From a virus (Duplodnaviria > Caudoviricetes), in the IMG/VR virus record IMGVR_UViG_3300021255_005861, positions 64,001 through 128,000 of that record: DNA of 64,000 nucleotides, one strand, 5' to 3'. Position numbers and translations under genes: made by a program. The notes beneath the pieces were generated by a model that did not search any database, had not been told where the DNA came from, and saw nothing but the letters and a program-made list of their open reading frames with translations. The first letter of the stretch is position 1; the number at the start of each line of letters is the position of its first letter. Below are positions 46,680 to 55,298 of the stretch, one piece after another.

Positions 46680-47220
46680 CGTATGTCCGAAGACGACCTT
46701 TACAGACCGCTCAACAGCCAGGGAATGAATGTCTTTGACATTATGGAGTTCCACGGAATGACAGGTCCCGTGAAAATTGTCAAGGACGTGTTGGCTGCGA
46801 AGAATGCCGAAATCGCACGGTTGCAGGAACGCAACGGGCATATTGACGACGGCAGGGTGAAACTGTTGGAAGCCCACGCCAGGACCTTGCAGGACACTGT
46901 GAACAGCCTGCAAGCCGACCTGGAACAAGTCCGCATTTTTATCAAGGCTTTGGACGTTACGAAGTTGGTTGCGGAGCGTGACAGCCTATCCAGGCAGAAT
47001 GAAGAACTAATCGCAGAAGTTGAAGACTACAAAGAGAAGTATTGCAAGTGGCGTAATCTTACACGGGACATTTGCACAGTGTTCGGGGACTCAACCTACA
47101 CCTACGTGGCTATGGAGGGTTGGTTGAAGAAAATGTGCGATGCCGACGTTTTGGACCGATACCTGGCTTTGGCTGACGACGTATGCAAACGCTTGCTGAA
47201 AGTCAAGCCCCACGAATGGG

Positions 47221-48848
47221 ATAGCAACTAATAATCGTATTTTACCAACAATTAGGGGTTTAGGCATTTTCTACATAAAATTTTCTTGAAAATTCCCTTG
47301 ATTTCCAATGAAAATAAATGTAGATTGTTATAAACTTTAAGTGTATGCAAGTTCGTGGTGGTTCTTGTATATAGGAATGGACTTTGAATGCCCGTTGGAT
47401 GCTAACCACCACTTTAAGCGTCTAACGGGCATTTGCTATTGTATGGAACAGCAGTGCGGACGGAAAATATGCTTGAAACCGAGCAAGGCACAGGTACGGA
47501 CGATGTACCGTATGTGTGCCGTCTCCCGCCGTGCCTACAACTGGAAACTGGCCGAGCAGAACAAGGCTTACGAGGAAGCCAAGGCCAACACGCCGGAAGG
47601 CGAGAAGGTCAAATGCACCCTCGGAACGCCGAGGGACTGGCACAAGGAATGGTGCATCTACAAGAAGCTCCCTGATAACAAGTGGATGACGGAAGTTTCC
47701 AAGTTCTGTGGCCAGGAAGCACTAATCGACCTCGGTTCCGCATGGAAGCGTTTCTTCAAAGGATTAGCCAAGCATCCACGCTTCCACCGCTATAACCAGG
47801 ACAACTCGTTCCGCTGCTCAGGTGGTGTATTCATCGGTCATGATTTCGTCCAGCTCCCTACCCTCGGCAGAATCAAGCTCCGCGAGAAGGACTACATCAA
47901 GATACCGAAGGATGCCGAGAAGATACCGCTTGCCATGGCGACCGTATCGGTGGATGCCGCTGGTAAATGGTATGTCTCCTTTGCCTATGTAGCCGACATC
48001 GTTCCAGTCCACGAATCCATATCTTCGTTCGATGAGCAGGACATCGTAGGCGTCGATTTCGGTGTGAAGGACCTCGCAATCACGAGCGACGGCATCGTGT
48101 ATGCCAACCCGAAAGCCTATCGCCATGCAAAGGCTAGGCTCCGTCGTGCTCAACGGGCACTCTCCCGCAAGAAGAAACACTCCAAGAATAGGGAACGGTG
48201 CAAGAAACTACTTGGTAGAATCCACCGCAGAATAACCAACATCCGTGTCAATGCGGCTCATCAGTTTACCGCTGACATTACAAAACACACGAAGCCGAAG
48301 GCTATAGTCATCGAGGACTTGAAGCCAAAGAACATGTCCAAGAACCATAAATTGGCTTCGGCTATCCTCGATGCCAACTTTGGTAGGATGAGGCAGTTCC
48401 TTGAATACAAGTGTGCATGGTTAGGCATACTGCTGTTCTTCGCTCCGCAGTTCTATGCTTCGTCAAGATATTGCTCCCACTGCGGGCAATACTACAACAA
48501 GGATTTGACCCTGGACGACAGGGAGTGGGTATGCCCGGTATGCGGACATAAACACGACAGAGATTACAATGCAGCCAGGAACTTGCAGTTCTATGGCCTG
48601 TGGCTACTAAATCTAGTAGTCCCAACTAATGACAATGCGGTGAGATACACCGTAAGCGACAATTCCGTTGCGAATGCTTGCCCCCACGGCAACGCCCAGT
48701 GCGTTACCTATCGGGAAGGTATGGTTTACACCAGCCCCAGAGACATGAGGTTGCAGTTCTTTGAAACACAGGAACAGTGCATGGCGATGAAGCAAGAAAT
48801 CACCAATACATATTTAATTGGTAGAAATGTGTAGAAATGATTTATCGG
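47221..48848 (+). mobile_element. Non-autonomous IS607-like tnpB-only element, copy A
   Basis: Ends shared with the 53681 copy (ATGGG|A..GCAACT left; GTAGAAATGTGTAGAAATGATTTATCGG right); no tnpA. Confidence 0.8.
47443..48834 (+). CDS. tnpB: TnpB nuclease
   Basis: VGVDFG, VIEDL, CSHC..CPVC, DRDYNAA. Confidence 0.92.
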   Translation: MEQQCGRKICLKPSKAQVRTMYRMCAVSRRAYNWKLAEQNKAYEEAKANTPEGEKVKCTLGTPRDWHKEWCIYKKLPDNKWMTEVSKFCGQEALIDLGSAWKRFFKGLAKHPRFHRYNQDNSFRCSGGVFIGHDFVQLPTLGRIKLREKDYIKIPKDAEKIPLAMATVSVDAAGKWYVSFAYVADIVPVHESISSFDEQDIVGVDFGVKDLAITSDGIVYANPKAYRHAKARLRRAQRALSRKKKHSKNRERCKKLLGRIHRRITNIRVNAAHQFTADITKHTKPKAIVIEDLKPKNMSKNHKLASAILDANFGRMRQFLEYKCAWLGILLFFAPQFYASSRYCSHCGQYYNKDLTLDDREWVCPVCGHKHDRDYNAARNLQFYGLWLLNLVVPTNDNAVRYTVSDNSVANACPHGNAQCVTYREGMVYTSPRDMRLQFFETQEQCMAMKQEITNTYLIGRNV

Positions 48849-49169
48849 AAGGAATTGTTTTCTTATGGGGCAGGTTTTCTCGGCTCGTGTACGCAGTATG
48901 TTGGTAAGGCGGGTAAGCATGAGATTGCCGGTATACTTGGTGTTTCCTCGGAATTATACATTTCCGAGGATGGTACTTTAAAGAGCAAGAGTACTATTCC
49001 GTTTGAATCCTTCCATGACAAGGACTTTGCTATCTTAGCCAAGTCCATCCGTGAACTGGAGGGCTTATGATTCGTACCGTGCTCGACCTCGCCATTGATA
49101 TCGCCTTCGTGGGGGCGCTCCTCTGCGGTACCGCCCTTATCTATGTATTTTCAAACTAGGAGAACCTTT

Positions 49170-49337
49170 ATGCAGTTCAAACTACGTAAGGCCTCGGACT
49201 ATTTTATGGATAATCAAGAGGATGTGGATGTCTCTACGTTAGAGGATTTGCAGGAACTCTGCTTGCGCTACGACAAGGAACTTATCGTGGATTTTCGGGA
49301 TAACACTATTGTGGTGTACGATTCTTATATTGAGTAG
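49170..49337 (+). CDS. Small phage protein
   Basis: RBS AGGAG; ...TLEDL....ELIV....IVVYD.YIE. Confidence 0.6.
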   Translation: MQFKLRKASDYFMDNQEDVDVSTLEDLQELCLRYDKELIVDFRDNTIVVYDSYIE

Positions 49338-49347
49338 GTAGGCGATT

Positions 49348-49764
49348 ATGAAAAATATGGAAAAGAAAATCAAGGAAAGTCCCTTGCTGAAAGATTTGAT
49401 GTTCAGCGGAGATGATTTAGATGCAATTCGCAATGTTGTTCTGGAGGCAATTTGCAAGTACCATAATTTAGTAGATACCGACCGCTTGATAAATAATCAA
49501 GCGGAAATGCGATATGTATATCATGCCTGGGAACGTACGGATGAACTAGAAACTAAATTATACTATTGTACTATGCAGGACGCATCTGAAGATTATATTG
49601 GTACAACTCATGGTGTAGAGGCAACATTACGGCGACCGCAGACAATAATCTACACGCATGCATATACCGTAATCACTCCGGTAGACGTCATTGAAAGATA
49701 TATACAAAAGGACTATCGTATAGATACATCTATGCACTTTAAACTTTATAAAAGGTTTGAATAA
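49348..49764 (+). CDS. Hypothetical protein
   Basis: AT-rich ORF. Confidence 0.5.
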   Translation: MKNMEKKIKESPLLKDLMFSGDDLDAIRNVVLEAICKYHNLVDTDRLINNQAEMRYVYHAWERTDELETKLYYCTMQDASEDYIGTTHGVEATLRRPQTIIYTHAYTVITPVDVIERYIQKDYRIDTSMHFKLYKRFE

Positions 49765-49779
49765 TTTTCATTTTCTCTC

Positions 49780-49808
49780 TTGACGGAAACCTTTTTATAT
49801 TATATATT
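49780..49808 (+). promoter_or_regulatory. Sigma70-like promoter of the tRNA operon
   Basis: TTGACG-17-TATATT. Confidence 0.75.
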
Positions 49809-49833
49809 TGAATCTGAAAAGGAAAAACTCTCT

Positions 49834-49917
49834 ATGCTGAAGACAAACGCAAATAAAAATTTCTTCCGTGCCACGGCCAGTTTCGTGGGCGGTTCTGCGA
49901 ATATCCAGCGGTGGTAG
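49834..49917 (+). CDS. Putative leader peptide MLKTNANKNFFRATASFVGGSANIQRW
   Basis: AAGGA upstream; its 3' end overlaps the antiterminator arm. Confidence 0.6.
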   Translation: MLKTNANKNFFRATASFVGGSANIQRW

Positions 49918-49974
49918 AGTTTTTCCAAGTGCTTAACGAGAATAGCCCCCCGCTGGAACAAGCGGGGCCTTTTT
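49904..49974 (+). promoter_or_regulatory. Terminator/antiterminator switch
   Basis: Terminator CCCCGCT-ggaaca-AGCGGGG plus T5; TCCAGCGG (49904-49911) pairs with CCGCTGGA (49950-49957). Confidence 0.65.
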
Positions 49975-49981
49975 CGTATAT

Positions 49982-50054
49982 GCCAAGGCATCCTATCGTG
50001 GGAAAGGACGGGACTGAAAATCTCAGAAACCCGGTTCAACTCCGGGACTTGGCA
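49982..50054 (+). tRNA. tRNA-Phe(GAA)
   Basis: GCCAAG/CTTGGC acceptor stem, loop CTGAAAA, CCCGG-TTCAACT-CCGGG. Confidence 0.8.
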
Positions 50055-50063
50055 CGAACATAT

Positions 50064-50137
50064 CGGCGTGTGGCGCAACTGGATAGCGCAGCGGACCTTT
50101 AATCCGCGGGGTCTAGGTTCAAGTCCTGGTACGCCGA
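50064..50137 (+). tRNA. tRNA-Lys(UUU) with C33
   Basis: Full cloverleaf; GCGGA-CCTTTAA-TCCGC. Confidence 0.88.
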
Positions 50138-50142
50138 CTCTT

Positions 50143-50215
50143 GGGACGGTAGCTCAGTTGGTAGAGCGCCTGCCTTGCAAGCAGGGGGTTGTCGGTTCGA
50201 TCCCGACCCGCTCCA
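50143..50215 (+). tRNA. tRNA-Ala(UGC)
   Basis: Cloverleaf with G3:U70; CCTGC-CTTGCAA-GCAGG. Confidence 0.92.
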
Positions 50216-50244
50216 TACAATATTTTAGGAATGTTAGCATCGTG

Positions 50245-51625
50245 GTCAACTACTCACCGCCTAAAGGCGGTGAGCTTGTAATGCCCCAGATGTTTCCATA
50301 GGGGACTTACAGTACGATCGGGTGGTTGACTCACACCCTGCCCTCCAGGTTTGCAATGCTCCATCAAGGGGCATCTTGAACGAGAAGGGATGTTTGCTCT
50401 TCCGAGCGATGTTGATTGCCGCATTCCAATCCGAATCAAGGATGGTACCGTTCTTGCAATAGAACCTTCGGTTCTTGCGAGTACCTTCCTTTTTGCCAGT
50501 GGTGCAGTCAATCTGGCTTGTCATGAATGGGGAAACTGTTTCTACCCGCTTGCCCGCGAGTAGTGCCTTGTATGACAGGATTTGTTTTAACTTATAGAAC
50601 GGCACCTGGGAAATCCTACGGTTGTGGCCCTTCCTCTTCTTGCCGTCCTTGGTCTTTGAAGTTTTCTGCTTTATTTTTGACAGGTCTTCGAGCACGATGA
50701 TGCTTGCGTCGGTACTGTGTATGATGGCGTTCGCTACTCGGCAGCACATGTCATCGGACTGCCGTTGCTCCTTCTTGCATAGCTTGTGCCTATGCCTGTG
50801 TGCACTCTTCGTGCCCTTCTTCTGTAGACTACTCTTCAAGTAACGAATCTTTCTGCGTCTAGCGTTATATTCCTTGTCGTTGAGCATCAACCCGTCAGAA
50901 GTTATCACAAAACGGCGCTCGCCCAGGTCAACGCCTATGCAAGTTTCGTCCTTCAAAGGTACTTCCGGAACCTCAAACGACAGTGCGAGGAAGAACCTAT
51001 CATCATGCTTAAATATCAGCGGATCATGCACGGGATACTTTCCGAACATCTCTTCCAGCTTCGGGTACTTGACTATATCGGCATCTACCCGCTTTCCTGG
51101 ATTGGCCGAGCATAATGAAATCGAAGATAAACTTAACCTGGAATACAGACGCTTGTCAAGACGCATCGAAAGGTTCTTCTTCGTAGGCACCTTGTGCTCG
51201 ACATGACCGTTGCTGTTGATTGAACGGAACGCCGATATGCAATCCTTGTATATCTTGATTATTCCCTGCGACGGTATCGTCGGAAACTTCTTGCGTAATT
51301 CGTAGTACACTGCGTTGTGTACAGACTGCAAGTCCAGGTGTACCTTACGGGTGGTTATGATGTTAGCACATTCGTTGTACGCAAGTCGAGATACTTCAAG
51401 AAGACTCGTCCAGTATTCCTGGCCGGCAATATCCTTGAATTTTAGCTCGGCATTGTATGTTATTGTACTCATCTATACTTCACCCGTGTTCACCTATAAG
51501 TTTAGATAATTTCAGTTACAAAAACAAGCAATTTCCGCATTATAACAAAATAAAGCGTTCCCAAAATGTTCTCGCAAGCATTCCTATGCCGCCCTAAAGG
51601 GACGGCATCTTCCTGCCAACTTTTT
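50245..51625 (-). mobile_element. IS200/IS605-family (IS1341-type) tnpB-only element
   Basis: Subterminal hairpins with TTTA loops at both ends; right end ...GTAGTTGAC; TTCAC immediately 5' of the left end. Confidence 0.85.
50261..51472 (-). CDS. tnpB: TnpB nuclease
   Basis: IGVDLG, VLEDL, SP..TSQ, DSDWNAA. Confidence 0.92.
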   Translation of the reverse strand: MSTITYNAELKFKDIAGQEYWTSLLEVSRLAYNECANIITTRKVHLDLQSVHNAVYYELRKKFPTIPSQGIIKIYKDCISAFRSINSNGHVEHKVPTKKNLSMRLDKRLYSRLSLSSISLCSANPGKRVDADIVKYPKLEEMFGKYPVHDPLIFKHDDRFFLALSFEVPEVPLKDETCIGVDLGERRFVITSDGLMLNDKEYNARRRKIRYLKSSLQKKGTKSAHRHRHKLCKKEQRQSDDMCCRVANAIIHSTDASIIVLEDLSKIKQKTSKTKDGKKRKGHNRRISQVPFYKLKQILSYKALLAGKRVETVSPFMTSQIDCTTGKKEGTRKNRRFYCKNGTILDSDWNAAINIARKSKHPFSFKMPLDGALQTWRAGCESTTRSYCKSPMETSGALQAHRL

Positions 51626-51691
51626 GTGAACTGCACATATCTCCATGGTATGTGTGAGGCGGGTCCGACTCCCGCACTTTCCCCGAAACAT

Positions 51692-51764
51692 TGGATAGTA
51701 GCTCAATGGTAGAGCGTCCCGCTGTTAACGGGAGGGTTGTAGGTTCGAGTCCCTTCTTCTCCGC
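51692..51764 (+). tRNA. tRNA-Asn(GUU), imperfect stems
   Basis: GCTC-AATGGTA-GAGC, TCCCG-CTGTTAA-CGGGA; mismatched T and acceptor stems. Confidence 0.7.
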
Positions 51765-51769
51765 TAGAT

Positions 51770-51843
51770 GCGGCTATAGCACAGCCTGGTCAGTGTGCCG
51801 GTTTGCCATATCGGAGACTCGGGTTCAAGTCCGGTCGTCCGCT
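51770..51843 (+). tRNA. tRNA-Gly(GCC), imperfect stems
   Basis: GCGG/CCGC acceptor, CCGGT-TTGCCAT-ATCGG, GGTTCAAGTCC. Confidence 0.7.
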
Positions 51844-52062
51844 CTATTTGAGTTGCTTTATGGAGAGGTCCTCACCCCAGATATCCGTGACGCTCGCCCC
51901 GTAGACGCGGACGAACTTCCTGCCGTCGTAGGCCTTCATCCATTGCCACGAGCGGGCGTCGGGAATCGTAAGTGTGTAGCAGTTGTCCCCGCGGCAGACC
52001 TCGAAGGACAGGGCAGATGCGGTGACGGCAAGCAGTAGGACGGACAGTGCGATGGCTTTCAT
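51844..52062 (-). CDS. Small secreted protein
   Basis: RBS AGGAG; signal peptide MKAIALSVLLLAVTASA. Confidence 0.7.
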   Translation of the reverse strand: MKAIALSVLLLAVTASALSFEVCRGDNCYTLTIPDARSWQWMKAYDGRKFVRVYGASVTDIWGEDLSIKQLK

Positions 52063-52299
52063 AGGGAAACTCCTTGTACTCTAAATATATATTTTTCTTA
52101 CATTTTAAAAATCTATTGACTGCGTTTTGTGCATAATCTATATTGGAAGAACTACAGAGGTTATTATGCTGAAGATACACGTGAACGAGCAGAAGATTGA
52201 AGATGTGGCTGGACGACAAGTCAGCATCGGATCCCCGCAGTACCAACAGGGAGGCCTGCAATCTTGAGTGGCGCAGGCTCCACGGATAAGGATTTAGAA

Positions 52300-53502
52300 A
52301 TGATTGAAATTCAAGGAAAATACAATACCGCCAAGGTATATACCGACAATATCGAGGAGGCAGCCTATAAGCAAATCCTCAACTTGATGAACCAGAAGTT
52401 CGCCGAGGGTTCACATTTCGCCATTATGCCCGACTGCCATGCCGGGGTCGGCTGCGTCATCGGGCTTACCATGAAAATCGTAGACCGTGTCGTACCGAAC
52501 CTGGTCGGTGTGGATATCGGGTGTTCTATGCTCGTGCTCAAGGTAGACAAGTCCTTCCACTTCGACCTTCCGAAAGTGGACAAGGTGTGGCACCAGTGCA
52601 TCCCGTCGGGAATGAACCATAATGTAAAGAAGCACCGGTTTGCCGACCGCGTAAACCTCGAGGACATGATAGCCCCGGTGAACGTGGACAAGCTGAAATT
52701 GTCCATTGGGACTCTCGGTGGGGGTAACCACTTCGGCGAAATCAACGAGGACGACGAGGGCAACCACTATATCGTAATCCACTCCGGGTCGCGCCACCTC
52801 GGTATCGAGGTGTGCCGGTACTACCAGGACTTGGCAATCAAGTACCACCGCAATGACCGCACGGCAATGCAGGATGCCATCAAGCGCCTGAAGCAGGCTG
52901 GTCGCGAGTATGAGATCGAGGACACCCTGCAACGTATGAGCGCGGAGCGTACACCTGTACCGAACGAACTCGCTTACCTGGAAGGTGCACTTATGCAGGA
53001 CTACCTTCACGACATGCGGATAGCGCAGGATTTTGCTATGTGGAACCGCGAGGCGATGATGGACGTCCTTGTGTCCGAACTGGGAATCAAGAAGCGTCAT
53101 ATCCAGGACAAGTTCTGTACGATGCACAACTACATAGATTTGGATAACATGGTTCTCCGCAAGGGCGCCATATCCCTGCAAAAGGACGAGGTCGCCCTAA
53201 TCCCTATGAATATGCGGGACGGCTCTCTAATCGTCAAGGGAAAGGGTAACCCGGAGTGGAACTGCTCGGGTCCGCACGGGGCTGGGCGACTCATGTCCCG
53301 CTCGAAGGCGAAGGAATCGTTGAAAATGGAGGACTTCAAGGCTGCCATGTCCGGCATCTACACTACTTGCGTGAGCTCCTCCACTATAGACGAGTCCCCG
53401 ATGGCCTACAAGCCGATGGACGAGATAGTGGCGAACATCCAGGACACCGCCGAGGTTATCAAGGTCATCAAGCCTATCTACAACTTCAAGGCCTCCGAAT
53501 GA
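52300..53502 (+). CDS. rtcB: RNA-splicing/repair ligase RtcB
   Basis: MPDCHAG, VGVDIGC, GTLGGGNHF, IHSGSR, HNY, RKGA, HGAGR, DESP.AYK. Confidence 0.96.
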   Translation: MIEIQGKYNTAKVYTDNIEEAAYKQILNLMNQKFAEGSHFAIMPDCHAGVGCVIGLTMKIVDRVVPNLVGVDIGCSMLVLKVDKSFHFDLPKVDKVWHQCIPSGMNHNVKKHRFADRVNLEDMIAPVNVDKLKLSIGTLGGGNHFGEINEDDEGNHYIVIHSGSRHLGIEVCRYYQDLAIKYHRNDRTAMQDAIKRLKQAGREYEIEDTLQRMSAERTPVPNELAYLEGALMQDYLHDMRIAQDFAMWNREAMMDVLVSELGIKKRHIQDKFCTMHNYIDLDNMVLRKGAISLQKDEVALIPMNMRDGSLIVKGKGNPEWNCSGPHGAGRLMSRSKAKESLKMEDFKAAMSGIYTTCVSSSTIDESPMAYKPMDEIVANIQDTAEVIKVIKPIYNFKASE

Positions 53503-53680
53503 GATACGCACAACAGTACAGGTTCAAGGACTGGACGAACGAGCAGGTACAGCTCGTGCTCCAGGACAAGATACCGGAAGGAAAGACATACAACCAGTGC
53601 TACTACTTCAGCAACCGCTACCTGCATCGCCCGTTCACGCCCGCCCGCAAGAAGCAGCACGCACGTATAATCGAGATGGG

Positions 53681-55298
53681 ACGGCAACTGATAACCGTAT
53701 TTCTACCAACAATTACCATTTTTAGGCATTTTCTATATAAAATTTTCTTCAAAAATTTCTTGTTTTTGTATAAAAATAAATGTAGATTATTATAAACTTG
53801 ATAATGTATGCGAGTATGTGAGAGTCCCCGCATAACACTAGAACGGACTTTTGAATGCCCGATGGATGCCGACTCTCACAATAGGTGATCATCGGGCATT
53901 TGCTATATGGACTATGGAACAGCACTGCGGAAGGAAGATATGCTTGAAGCCGAGCAAGGCACAAATACCGATTCTATATCGGATGTGTGCCGTTTCCCGT
54001 CGTGCTTATAATTGGAAACTCGCAGAACAGAACAAGGTTTACGAGTTGGCTAAAGCCAATACGCCCGAAGGCGAGAAGGTTAAGTGCAAGTTCGGTTCTC
54101 CTATTGATTGGCACAGGGAATGGTGCATACACAAGAAACTCCCCGAAAACAAGTGGATGACCGAAGTCTCCAAGTTCTGCGGTCAGGAAGCCTTGATAGA
54201 CTTGGGTGCTGCGTGGAAGCGGTTCTTCAAGGGTCAAGCCAAGCATCCACGTTTCCACAAGTATAACCGGGATAACTCGTTTAGGTGCAGCGGTGGCGTG
54301 TTCATCGGTCGTGATTTCGTGCAACTTCCGACACTTGGAAAAGTTCGCCTGCAAGAGAAGGATTACATCAAGATACCGAAGGACAGCGAGAAGATACCGC
54401 TTGCGATGGCTACCGTATCGGTGGACGCAAGCGGGAAGTGGTTCGTGTCGTTCGCCTACGTGACGGATATTATACCTATACACGAAGTAGTGTCTAGCAT
54501 AGCCACTGACGATATTGTAGGCATAGACTTCGGTATTAAAGACTTGGCTATCACTAGCGAGGGTATCGTGTATGCGAATCCCAAGGGATATGCCCGTGCA
54601 AAGGCTAGACTTCGGAGATACCAAAGGGCTTTGAGTAGGAAGAAGAAATGCTCAAAGAACAAGAACAAGTGCCGTAAGCGTATAGCCCGTCTGTATAGGC
54701 GTATAACTAACGTCCGCATAGATACGGCACATCAGTTTACTAGCGATGTCGTTTACAAGTCCAAACCGAAAATGGTAGTCATTGAGGACTTGAAGCCACA
54801 GAATATGGCGAAGAACCACAAGTTAGCATCTGCCATCCTGGATGCCAATTTCGGGCGTATGCGGACATACCTTGAATACAAGTGCAGATGGAATAACATA
54901 AACTTGGCTGTTGCACCGAGATTTTACGCTAGTAGTCAGTATTGCTCGCACTGCGGACAATACAAGAACGAAGATTTGAAACTGAATGACAGAGAGTGGG
55001 TATGCCCCGTATGCGGGCATAAACACGACCGAGATTACAATGCAGCCAGGAACTTGCAGTTCTATGGCTTGTGGCTCACTGGACTCGTGAGAACACAAAA
55101 TAGTTGCGGTGAGAACACCGTCAAAGCCTGCCCCCACGGAAACACAGGATGTGTTTCTTATCGGGAAGGTATGACCTATGTCAGCCCTAGAGATATGAGG
55201 TTGCAGTTCTTGGAATCCCAAGAGCAGTGCATATCGCTGAAGCAGGAAATCACTAATACATATTTAATTGGTAGAAATGTGTAGAAATGATTTATCGG
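53681..55298 (+). mobile_element. Non-autonomous IS607-like tnpB-only element, copy B
   Basis: Ends and protein homologous to copy A. Confidence 0.8.
53914..55284 (+). CDS. tnpB: TnpB nuclease
   Basis: VGIDFG, VIEDL, zinc finger, DRDYNAA. Confidence 0.92.
   Translation: MEQHCGRKICLKPSKAQIPILYRMCAVSRRAYNWKLAEQNKVYELAKANTPEGEKVKCKFGSPIDWHREWCIHKKLPENKWMTEVSKFCGQEALIDLGAAWKRFFKGQAKHPRFHKYNRDNSFRCSGGVFIGRDFVQLPTLGKVRLQEKDYIKIPKDSEKIPLAMATVSVDASGKWFVSFAYVTDIIPIHEVVSSIATDDIVGIDFGIKDLAITSEGIVYANPKGYARAKARLRRYQRALSRKKKCSKNKNKCRKRIARLYRRITNVRIDTAHQFTSDVVYKSKPKMVVIEDLKPQNMAKNHKLASAILDANFGRMRTYLEYKCRWNNINLAVAPRFYASSQYCSHCGQYKNEDLKLNDREWVCPVCGHKHDRDYNAARNLQFYGLWLTGLVRTQNSCGENTVKACPHGNTGCVSYREGMTYVSPRDMRLQFLESQEQCISLKQEITNTYLIGRNV

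Follow-up and report, generated by a model that had tools for sequence, protein, structure and literature searches.

The tRNA genes of a large gut or rumen phage are likely gated by a ribosome-mediated (leader-peptide) transcription attenuator, the tRNAs probably being made only when ribosomes read the codons of a short leader open reading frame (ORF) slowly. This leader precedes the tRNA array in the 64,000-nucleotide (nt) stretch analysed here, referred to as the window (bases 64001–128000 of the 185,666-bp IMG/VR record IMGVR_UViG_3300021255_005861). The anatomy of the leader, its conservation and the match between its codons and the downstream tRNAs are established by comparison. To our knowledge, phage tRNA genes have been the subject of decades of debate as to their purpose, and their regulation is almost unknown. 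A leader written in the codons of its own array indicates that the quantity measured would be the decoding speed of these codons and offers a circuit that can be tested.

The promoter, ribosome-binding site, 27-codon ORF and intrinsic terminator that a preliminary description had proposed, based on the letters of the DNA, are all present between 49780 and 49974 (Table 1). The promoter (49780–49808) is the top sigma-70-like match within 47000–54000, with a transcript start predicted at ~49815. The distance to the ATG of the leader ORF is 7 nt from the Shine–Dalgarno sequence AGGAAAA and 10 nt from its AGGA core, the usual range in this genome being 6–10 nt. Downstream, the gap from the U-run of the terminator to the first tRNA gene is 7 nt in the window and ~10 nt or less in the relatives, too short to accommodate a promoter. 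A promoter concealed in the terminator region was also considered and dropped, no plausible hexamers being seen there. The 7-nt distance had been described as separating the terminator from tRNA-Phe; the spacing is right, but the Phe gene itself scores below the Rfam threshold (see below). No second copy of the leader sequence was found in its own genome.

Two alternative pairings are available to the end of the leader ORF. The complementarity that had been claimed between this end and the 5′ arm and loop of the terminator is an exact 8-bp match, TCCAGCGG (49904–49911) being the complement of CCGCTGGA (49950–49957). The duplex of the corresponding segments, regions 2 and 3, is predicted at −20.4 kcal/mol versus −9.0 ± 3.0 kcal/mol in shuffled sequences. 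The other partner is region 1, which carries the Shine–Dalgarno sequence and the AUG: in the minimum free energy (MFE) fold of 49815–49985 (z = −4.2), 49821–49839 is paired with 49904–49926, and this 1:2 duplex is predicted at −22.8 kcal/mol versus −6.1 ± 2.4 kcal/mol in shuffles. Since region 2 can take either region 1 or region 3, the full 1:2/2:3/3:4 scheme of an attenuator is obtained. The geometry of the trp, phe and his attenuators, as initially invoked, thus stands as regards terminator and antiterminator, but it was incomplete, the 1:2 helix between the ORF end and the Shine–Dalgarno/AUG segment (P1) having been overlooked.

Relatives were gathered via the gene upstream of the leader, which encodes 138 residues, and via motif scanning. 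The upstream gene led to eight contigs at 87–94% identity, one of which, L024, carries the array without the TnpB insertion present in the window. An exhaustive profile search with the same gene gave relatives at 31–46% identity, two of which (P0009 and P0013) precede the same leader architecture; the relatives bearing P0007, P0008 and P0014 have no array downstream of the gene. A scan with the conserved parts of the leader as a motif added four contigs, of which three are viral (215 kb) and one belongs to a Clostridia metagenome-assembled genome (buffalo cecum). Altogether, 13 distinct leaders in two clades were obtained (the window with L024–L031, L143–L155, L158–L160 and L168). Several other routes gave nothing further: relatives found through the RtcB gene (L002–L015) have no leader or array at the corresponding place; exact-word scans of viral contigs with the 3′ end of tRNA-Phe or the inner hairpin were empty, as were searches of viral contigs with the upstream gene and then with its alignment to relatives including the distant P0009; a metagenome scan with the hairpin pattern returned 108 chance matches and no relative; a relaxed motif scan brought no further family members; and the leaders of both clades had no blastn match among GenBank phages.

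The architecture is the same throughout. In 13/13 leaders, a promoter, a Shine–Dalgarno sequence, an ORF of 27 or 28 codons and a terminator are followed by a tRNA-Phe gene ~10 nt or less past the U-run. Both promoter hexamers are kept in all of them, with variation in the spacer and in the stretch from the −10 hexamer to the Shine–Dalgarno sequence. The ATG and the frame are likewise kept in every leader, and the length is 27 codons except in L159, where one extra in-frame Phe codon makes it 28. Between the two clades, for which the identity of the upstream gene is only 31–36%, the nucleotide alignment requires no frame-breaking gap within the ORF. The second clade is termed the Glu/Tyr clade after tRNAs of its arrays; over its codons 2–23 the numbers of variable states at codon positions 1, 2 and 3 are 0, 6 and 11, and most of its amino-acid changes remain within the set served by the array. 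In the clade of the window, 6 of the 10 variable states lie at third codon positions. Eleven of the 27 leader residues are common to both clades, and at the 16 that differ the replacements are nearly all within each clade's array set. The check on conservation of the ORF among relatives that had been suggested at the outset therefore comes out in its favour, with the same frame and length in the 13 leaders, a peak of variation at third positions and a length change that is in frame. Just 3′ of the leader stop, the stretch TTCCAAGTG is invariant in the window and the 12 other leaders, amid variable adjacent bases; its first four bases close P1 by pairing with the Shine–Dalgarno sequence, and only those four are thereby explained.

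The second line of evidence is the codon content. In the window, 16 of the 27 leader codons specify the six amino acids that had been claimed as the specificities of the downstream tRNAs, a count that proves right; against a background of 0.295 in the long ORFs of this phage, the binomial P is ~1e-3. Sixteen matches are reached by 0.45% of the 27-residue windows of the long ORFs and, in the comparison with shuffled sequence that the preliminary description had called for, by 0 of 20,000 shuffled versions of the ORF without stops. In the window's clade, the arrays serve Phe, Lys or Arg, Ala, Asn, Thr, Ser and Gly, and the leaders contain those amino acids without Glu or Tyr. In the Glu/Tyr clade, the arrays serve Phe, Glu, Ala, Asn, Tyr and Ser; in its leaders, Glu codons number three and Tyr codons three or four, Gly and Thr are absent, and Arg occurs only once each in L158 and L160. 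The match of a leader to its own array is 15–19/27 in the window's clade and, for whole arrays of the Glu/Tyr clade, 20–24 of 27–28 (binomial 1e-5 to 8e-9 versus the clade's own background). When all amino-acid sets of equal size are compared, those doing as well as the leader's own array number 1 of 38,760 for L143 and 1 of 77,520 for L030 (the own set being the single best in both), 5 of 77,520 for L024 and 10 of 15,504 for the window. Considering only the clade-specific amino acids (Lys, Arg, Thr and Gly versus Glu and Tyr), the ratio is 8:0 in L024 and 2:7 in L143 (Fisher P = 2e-3), and P values for this partition range from 2e-3 to 7e-3. Most of the residues outside the array set come from the last three or four codons, whose sequence is dictated by the pairing with regions 1 and 3.

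An independent case supports this correspondence. In G004, an unrelated 386-kb phage with 34% G+C whose RtcB is 57% identical, a 33-codon ORF not homologous to the window leader is followed by a terminator ~10 nt before a tRNA array (L222:11235–11559, minus strand). The array comprises 11 genes, for Asn, Tyr, Asp, Met, Thr, Glu and Gly, and 25 of the 33 leader codons match it (P = 3e-5 versus the phage's own ORFs). The end of this ORF is also complementary to the terminator arm (−13.1 versus −4.4 ± 1.9 kcal/mol, P = 0.001). The prediction that leader codons should follow tRNA content thus holds both between the two clades and in this unrelated phage. In another phage, G005, the first tRNA array, of 13 genes, is immediately preceded by an ORF of 37 codons and a strong terminator (L221 reverse complement, ~930–1250); the match there is 22/37, but the codon test is powerless since the array serves 11 amino acids. 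After the stop of the G005 ORF, a TGATTTCC motif recalls the window family.

The third line concerns the helices. Four sequence types of the terminator stem exist among the lineages, each followed by a U-run. Across the 13 leaders, predicted energies are −15 to −26 kcal/mol for the 2:3 duplexes and −9 to −23 kcal/mol for the 1:2 duplexes; the former are better than 500 shuffles of region 2 in 13/13 leaders and the latter in 12/13 (P = 0.07 in L155). Across the four stem types, cognate region partners bind better than non-cognate ones. Pairing in the ground state (P1, P2 and terminator) amounts to 92% in alignment A2, versus 40–53% with slid partners, and its covariation score is reached by 0 of 500 shuffles, the terminator stem being among the covarying elements. 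The antiterminator is 84% paired, versus 29–68% with slid partners, and three of its pairs are changed on both sides. A pair flanking P2 is A–U in one clade and G–C in the relatives of the window, with an A–A mismatch in the window itself. The covariation that the preliminary description had expected in both helices is accordingly seen, terminator and antiterminator being kept through two-sided changes and cognate pairs being the stronger. The hairpin CCACG/CGTGG that it had noticed inside the ORF fared less well: it exists in the window's clade and is lacking from the Glu/Tyr clade.

Taken together, the locus displays what characterizes an attenuator, namely a short ORF with a ribosome-binding site after a promoter, codon enrichment, a terminator without a later promoter, and both the 2:3 and the 1:2 pairings. 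Read in this manner, transcription would begin at ~49815, and a ribosome would load co-transcriptionally and translate the 27-codon ORF. If no ribosome loads, regions 1 and 2 would pair, the terminator would form and transcription would halt. A fast ribosome that reaches the stop codon would cover region 2, so that the terminator would again form and transcription would halt. A ribosome lagging on the sensor codons would leave region 2 exposed, and this region would capture region 3 before the 3′ arm exists, giving read-through into the tRNA genes. As the sensor codons would be those decoded by the downstream tRNAs, the circuit would gauge the decoding capacity of the cell for them: tRNAs would be supplied when this capacity is low and shut off once it is restored. 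Since stalling would give read-through, the sign of the regulation follows from the anatomy; translation of the leader, the stalling response and its sign are in this way inferred from the arrangement of the sequence.

Folding models agree with part of this scheme. In the absence of a ribosome, every leader gives a full-length transcript that folds into P1, P2 and the terminator. When a ribosome is placed at codon 12 of a transcript that still lacks region 4, region 2 pairs with 7–9 of the 7–10 bases of the terminator 5′ arm in the 11/11 leaders modelled. Several observations nevertheless weigh against a ribosome-mediated attenuator. Equilibrium folds of the full transcript in which pairs enclosing the ribosome are allowed give the antiterminator of the window only for stalls at codons 2–4, and never give it in L149, L155, L158 and L160. 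Because such folds favour the terminator in several relatives at any ribosome position, the switch must be kinetic, as in trp; the failure in the relatives is taken as a limit of equilibrium models and not as evidence either way. Region 1 corresponds to the Shine–Dalgarno sequence and AUG and not, as in classical attenuators, to the sensor codons, and during a stall in mid-ORF it would have to be kept from re-pairing. A stalled ribosome may remove P2, which would otherwise nucleate P1, and a queued second ribosome could also sit on the start site. Short-term tracking of the array is imperfect as well. The L158 array lacks Ala and Asn, with an 830-nt insert ahead of the loss, but the leader keeps these codons and its match to its own array is only 12/27; the Lys-3 codon is kept in L031 and in the Glu/Tyr clade, both without a tRNA-Lys gene; and some Ala (GCC), Thr (ACA) and Ser (TCG) codons fit the encoded anticodons less than optimally. 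Finally, independent lineages are few, with two clades and one unrelated phage.

Other explanations have to be weighed against the same observations. The leader could be a small structured RNA (~160 nt) that is transcribed from its own promoter to its own terminator and contains an open frame by chance, the tRNAs being expressed by constitutive leak-through or from upstream transcripts. The fold of z = −4.2 is indeed a long hairpin closed by the 5′ and 3′ ends of the transcript, it sequesters the Shine–Dalgarno sequence and AUG, P1 and P2 are conserved, and the tRNA cluster of phage T4, which holds small stable RNAs, provides a precedent. This is very unlikely, however, given a frame whose length and phase are kept over divergent sequences, with variation that peaks at third positions and one codon inserted in frame, and an amino-acid content that follows the array, which a non-coding RNA does not predict; nor does the leader match any Rfam family. 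It is also conceivable that the 27-residue peptide is itself the product, that the terminator simply ends its gene and that the codon match mirrors the codon usage of the phage. Eleven residues common to both clades, and a longer TTG-started frame listed as a gene by gene callers in two contigs, would be in keeping with a functional peptide; a protein search with this 45-residue frame gave no candidate. Such a role appears extremely improbable in view of the 16/27 positions at which the clades differ, with replacements nearly all within their own array sets, and of a conserved antiterminator that it leaves unexplained. Codon usage is already accounted for, since the enrichment is measured against each phage's own long ORFs.

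A terminator without a downstream promoter must somehow be overcome, and the gate could be opened by other means, either an antitermination protein, an RNA-binding protein or, as in T-box riboswitches, uncharged tRNA, with the ORF being secondary. The invariant TTCCAAGTG could then be a binding site. Yet no match to a T-box or any other riboswitch was found at E up to 5, the T-box being dropped for lack of an RF00230 match in 49300–52300 at that level. A gate of this type also fails to explain why the amino acids of the array recur in the leaders of three separate lineages and why it is the end of the ORF, of all segments, that serves as the antiterminator strand, so that it is judged distinctly unlikely. 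By comparison, the ribosome-mediated attenuator is supported as a whole by the comparative evidence, that is, conservation of the ORF, kept helices and codon tracking.

The array of the window is partly eroded, the leader being intact. Genes were called by ARAGORN and Rfam (threshold 29 bits), and of the six specificities initially listed only Lys, Ala, Asn and Gly are called by both; Phe is doubtful and Trp is split by a TnpB element. The Phe-like gene scores 27.5 bits, and the gene at this position in the relatives scores 34–48 bits and is called by ARAGORN. The TnpB-only element lies antisense to the array, interrupts the D-arm region of tRNA-Trp(CCA) and splits the promoter-proximal tRNAs from the Asn and Gly genes; joining ~50245 to ~51627 restores an ARAGORN call of tRNA-Trp(CCA). 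The element is absent at the same position in L024, L030 and L031. Further TnpB genes are seen in the window at 47341–48834 and 53851–55284. The Asn and Gly genes are chimeric beside those of the relatives (window 51692–51844 versus L024:6036–6210), and the Thr and Ser genes that the relatives carry have no counterpart in the window, a pattern suggestive of decay in the distal part of the array. A lone tRNA-Glu(CUC) elsewhere in the genome of the window phage has no leader that could be found. A Y-RNA-like element was dropped as a candidate, the sole YrlA match being weak, partial and placed over a tRNA, with no Ro-type gene seen.

Table 1. Features of the leader, the tRNA array and the adjacent gene (positions in the window)
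Feature	Position	Strand	Details
Sigma-70-type promoter	49780..49808	+	TTGACG (49780-49785), 17 nt, TATATT (49803-49808)
Leader ORF Shine–Dalgarno sequence, AGGAAAA	49820..49826	+	Invariant in alignment A2
Region 1 (P1 5′ strand)	49821..49839	+	Covers Shine–Dalgarno sequence, AUG and codon 2; MFE fold
Leader ORF	49834..49917	+	27 sense codons (49834-49914) and TAG (49915-49917)
P2 5′ strand (codons 5-7)	49848..49851	+	Pairs with 49896-49899
Apical hairpin CCACG/CGTGG in ORF	49866..49892	+	Window's clade only
P2 3′ strand (codons 21-23)	49896..49899	+	MFE fold, clade comparison
Region 2 (last four codons, stop, UUUUCC stretch)	49904..49926	+	Partner: region 1 (P1) or region 3 (antiterminator)
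TTCCAAGTG	49923..49931	+	Invariant in both clades
Region 3 (terminator 5′ arm and first loop bases)	49947..49957	+	Antiterminator partner of region 2
Intrinsic terminator	49948..49974	+	7-bp G+C-rich stem 49948-49954/49961-49967, 6-nt loop, U-run to 49974
tRNA-Phe(GAA)-like gene	49982..50054	+	Rfam 27.5 bits versus threshold 29; no ARAGORN call
tRNA-Lys(UUU)	50064..50138	+	56.6 bits
tRNA-Ala(UGC)	50142..50216	+	67.5 bits
tRNA-Trp(CCA) 5′ piece	~50228..50245	+	Truncated by TnpB element; junction good to ~2 nt
TnpB element	50246..51626	-	tnpB ORF 50261-51472; Pfam Cas12f1-like_TNB 2.5e-15
tRNA-Trp(CCA) 3′ piece	51627..51684	+	ARAGORN call when joined to 5′ piece
tRNA-Asn(GUU), chimeric	51692..51764	+	T arm and 3′ acceptor strand as in relatives' Ser(GCU); acceptor stem mismatched
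tRNA-Gly(GCC)	51770..51844	+	35.4 bits versus 65.4 in L024; T stem mismatched
RtcB RNA ligase	52264..53502	+	Pfam RtcB 9.3e-60; RNA-repair gene beside array

Some features of the arrays and of their surroundings deserve mention. The near-universal U33 is replaced by C in the tRNA-Lys(UUU) of the window (50064–50138) and in the tRNA-Thr(CGU) of a relative (L024:5964–6039); anticodon-loop changes of this U33-replacing kind have been proposed as a means of evading anticodon nucleases (PMC10264068). In two contigs of the family, the Ala and Asn genes are separated by ~130–210 nt whose ends resemble the acceptor and T arm of a tRNA (L143:4860–4988 and L159:1314–1526); neither ARAGORN nor Rfam makes a call in these intervals, which may correspond to an interrupted or aberrant tRNA. 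RNA-repair genes recur in the neighbourhood. RtcB, next to the array, has 412 residues in the window and is called as 726 residues in L024 (L024:6830–9010), where it may contain an insertion such as an intein or be a fusion; a PNKP-type phosphatase gene is found just after the array in L149 (L149:4656–5123); and in L156 a Tpt1-type 2′-phosphotransferase gene lies upstream of the homologue of the 138-residue gene (L156:1413–2060), with no array there. As judged from gene content, RNA-repair genes beside arrays would fit host tRNA cleavage as a trigger, as the preliminary description had suggested; amino-acid starvation, host shut-off or a mismatch in codon usage would equally cause stalling.

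Beyond this family, codon-matched leader attenuators that sample the codons of the array, and are switched on when host tRNAs are depleted (e.g. by anticodon nucleases or host shut-off), could rather plausibly be a general control of tRNA genes in large phages. If so, leader and array would co-evolve, and the composition of a leader could predict the tRNA pools that a phage expects to lose. Leaders may thereby provide a readout of the host tRNAs under attack in a given phage–host pair, and could serve synthetic biology as compact and programmable sensors of tRNA availability. Textbook leader-peptide attenuation would moreover be extended to genes whose product is what is sensed, that is, a direct homeostatic loop. 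The preliminary description knew of no attenuator controlling a phage tRNA array, and a full-text literature search likewise returned no report of tRNA genes, whether of phage or cellular origin, under the control of a leader-peptide attenuator.

Comparison with known systems helps to define what the leader shares with them. Studies on phage tRNAs and tRNA repair as counter-defence (PMC10264068, PMC11555353; T4 Pnkp/Rnl versus PrrC) likewise describe tRNA genes beside RNA-repair genes, and the neighbourhood seen here is consistent with the replacement of damaged host tRNAs. However, both papers treat what phage tRNAs do, and PMC10264068 makes no mention of attenuators, leaders, terminators or promoters, while the present finding concerns the control of expression. 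T-box leaders resemble the element in that a terminator/antiterminator pair reports on the tRNA pool and adjusts translation-related genes, but they recognize uncharged tRNA by direct binding and work without an ORF, unlike the window leader; we know of no T-box that controls tRNA genes. In Escherichia coli, the pheST attenuator (pheM leader) regulates a component of the translation apparatus according to the supply of charged tRNA-Phe. It is likewise a leader-peptide attenuator, and differs in that its target is an aminoacyl-tRNA synthetase, in sensing one amino acid and in its location in a cellular genome. The closest counterparts are the enterobacterial attenuators (thr, ilvGMEDA, trp, his, pheA and leu), which share the promoter-proximal, codon-rich ORF, the intrinsic terminator, the mutually exclusive 1:2/2:3/3:4 pairings, the covering of region 2 by a ribosome at the stop codon and, as in thr and ilv, the sensing of several amino acids. 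In contrast, the element described here is borne by a phage, and its targets are tRNAs instead of biosynthetic enzymes, so that the product is the sensed molecule. It would sample six or seven amino acids over nearly the whole ORF, as opposed to one to three in a short run, and its region 1 is the leader's own Shine–Dalgarno sequence and AUG and not the sensor codons. The class of mechanism is thus a textbook one, and what is new is the tRNA-gene target, the broad sampling of codons and the use of the Shine–Dalgarno/AUG segment as region 1.

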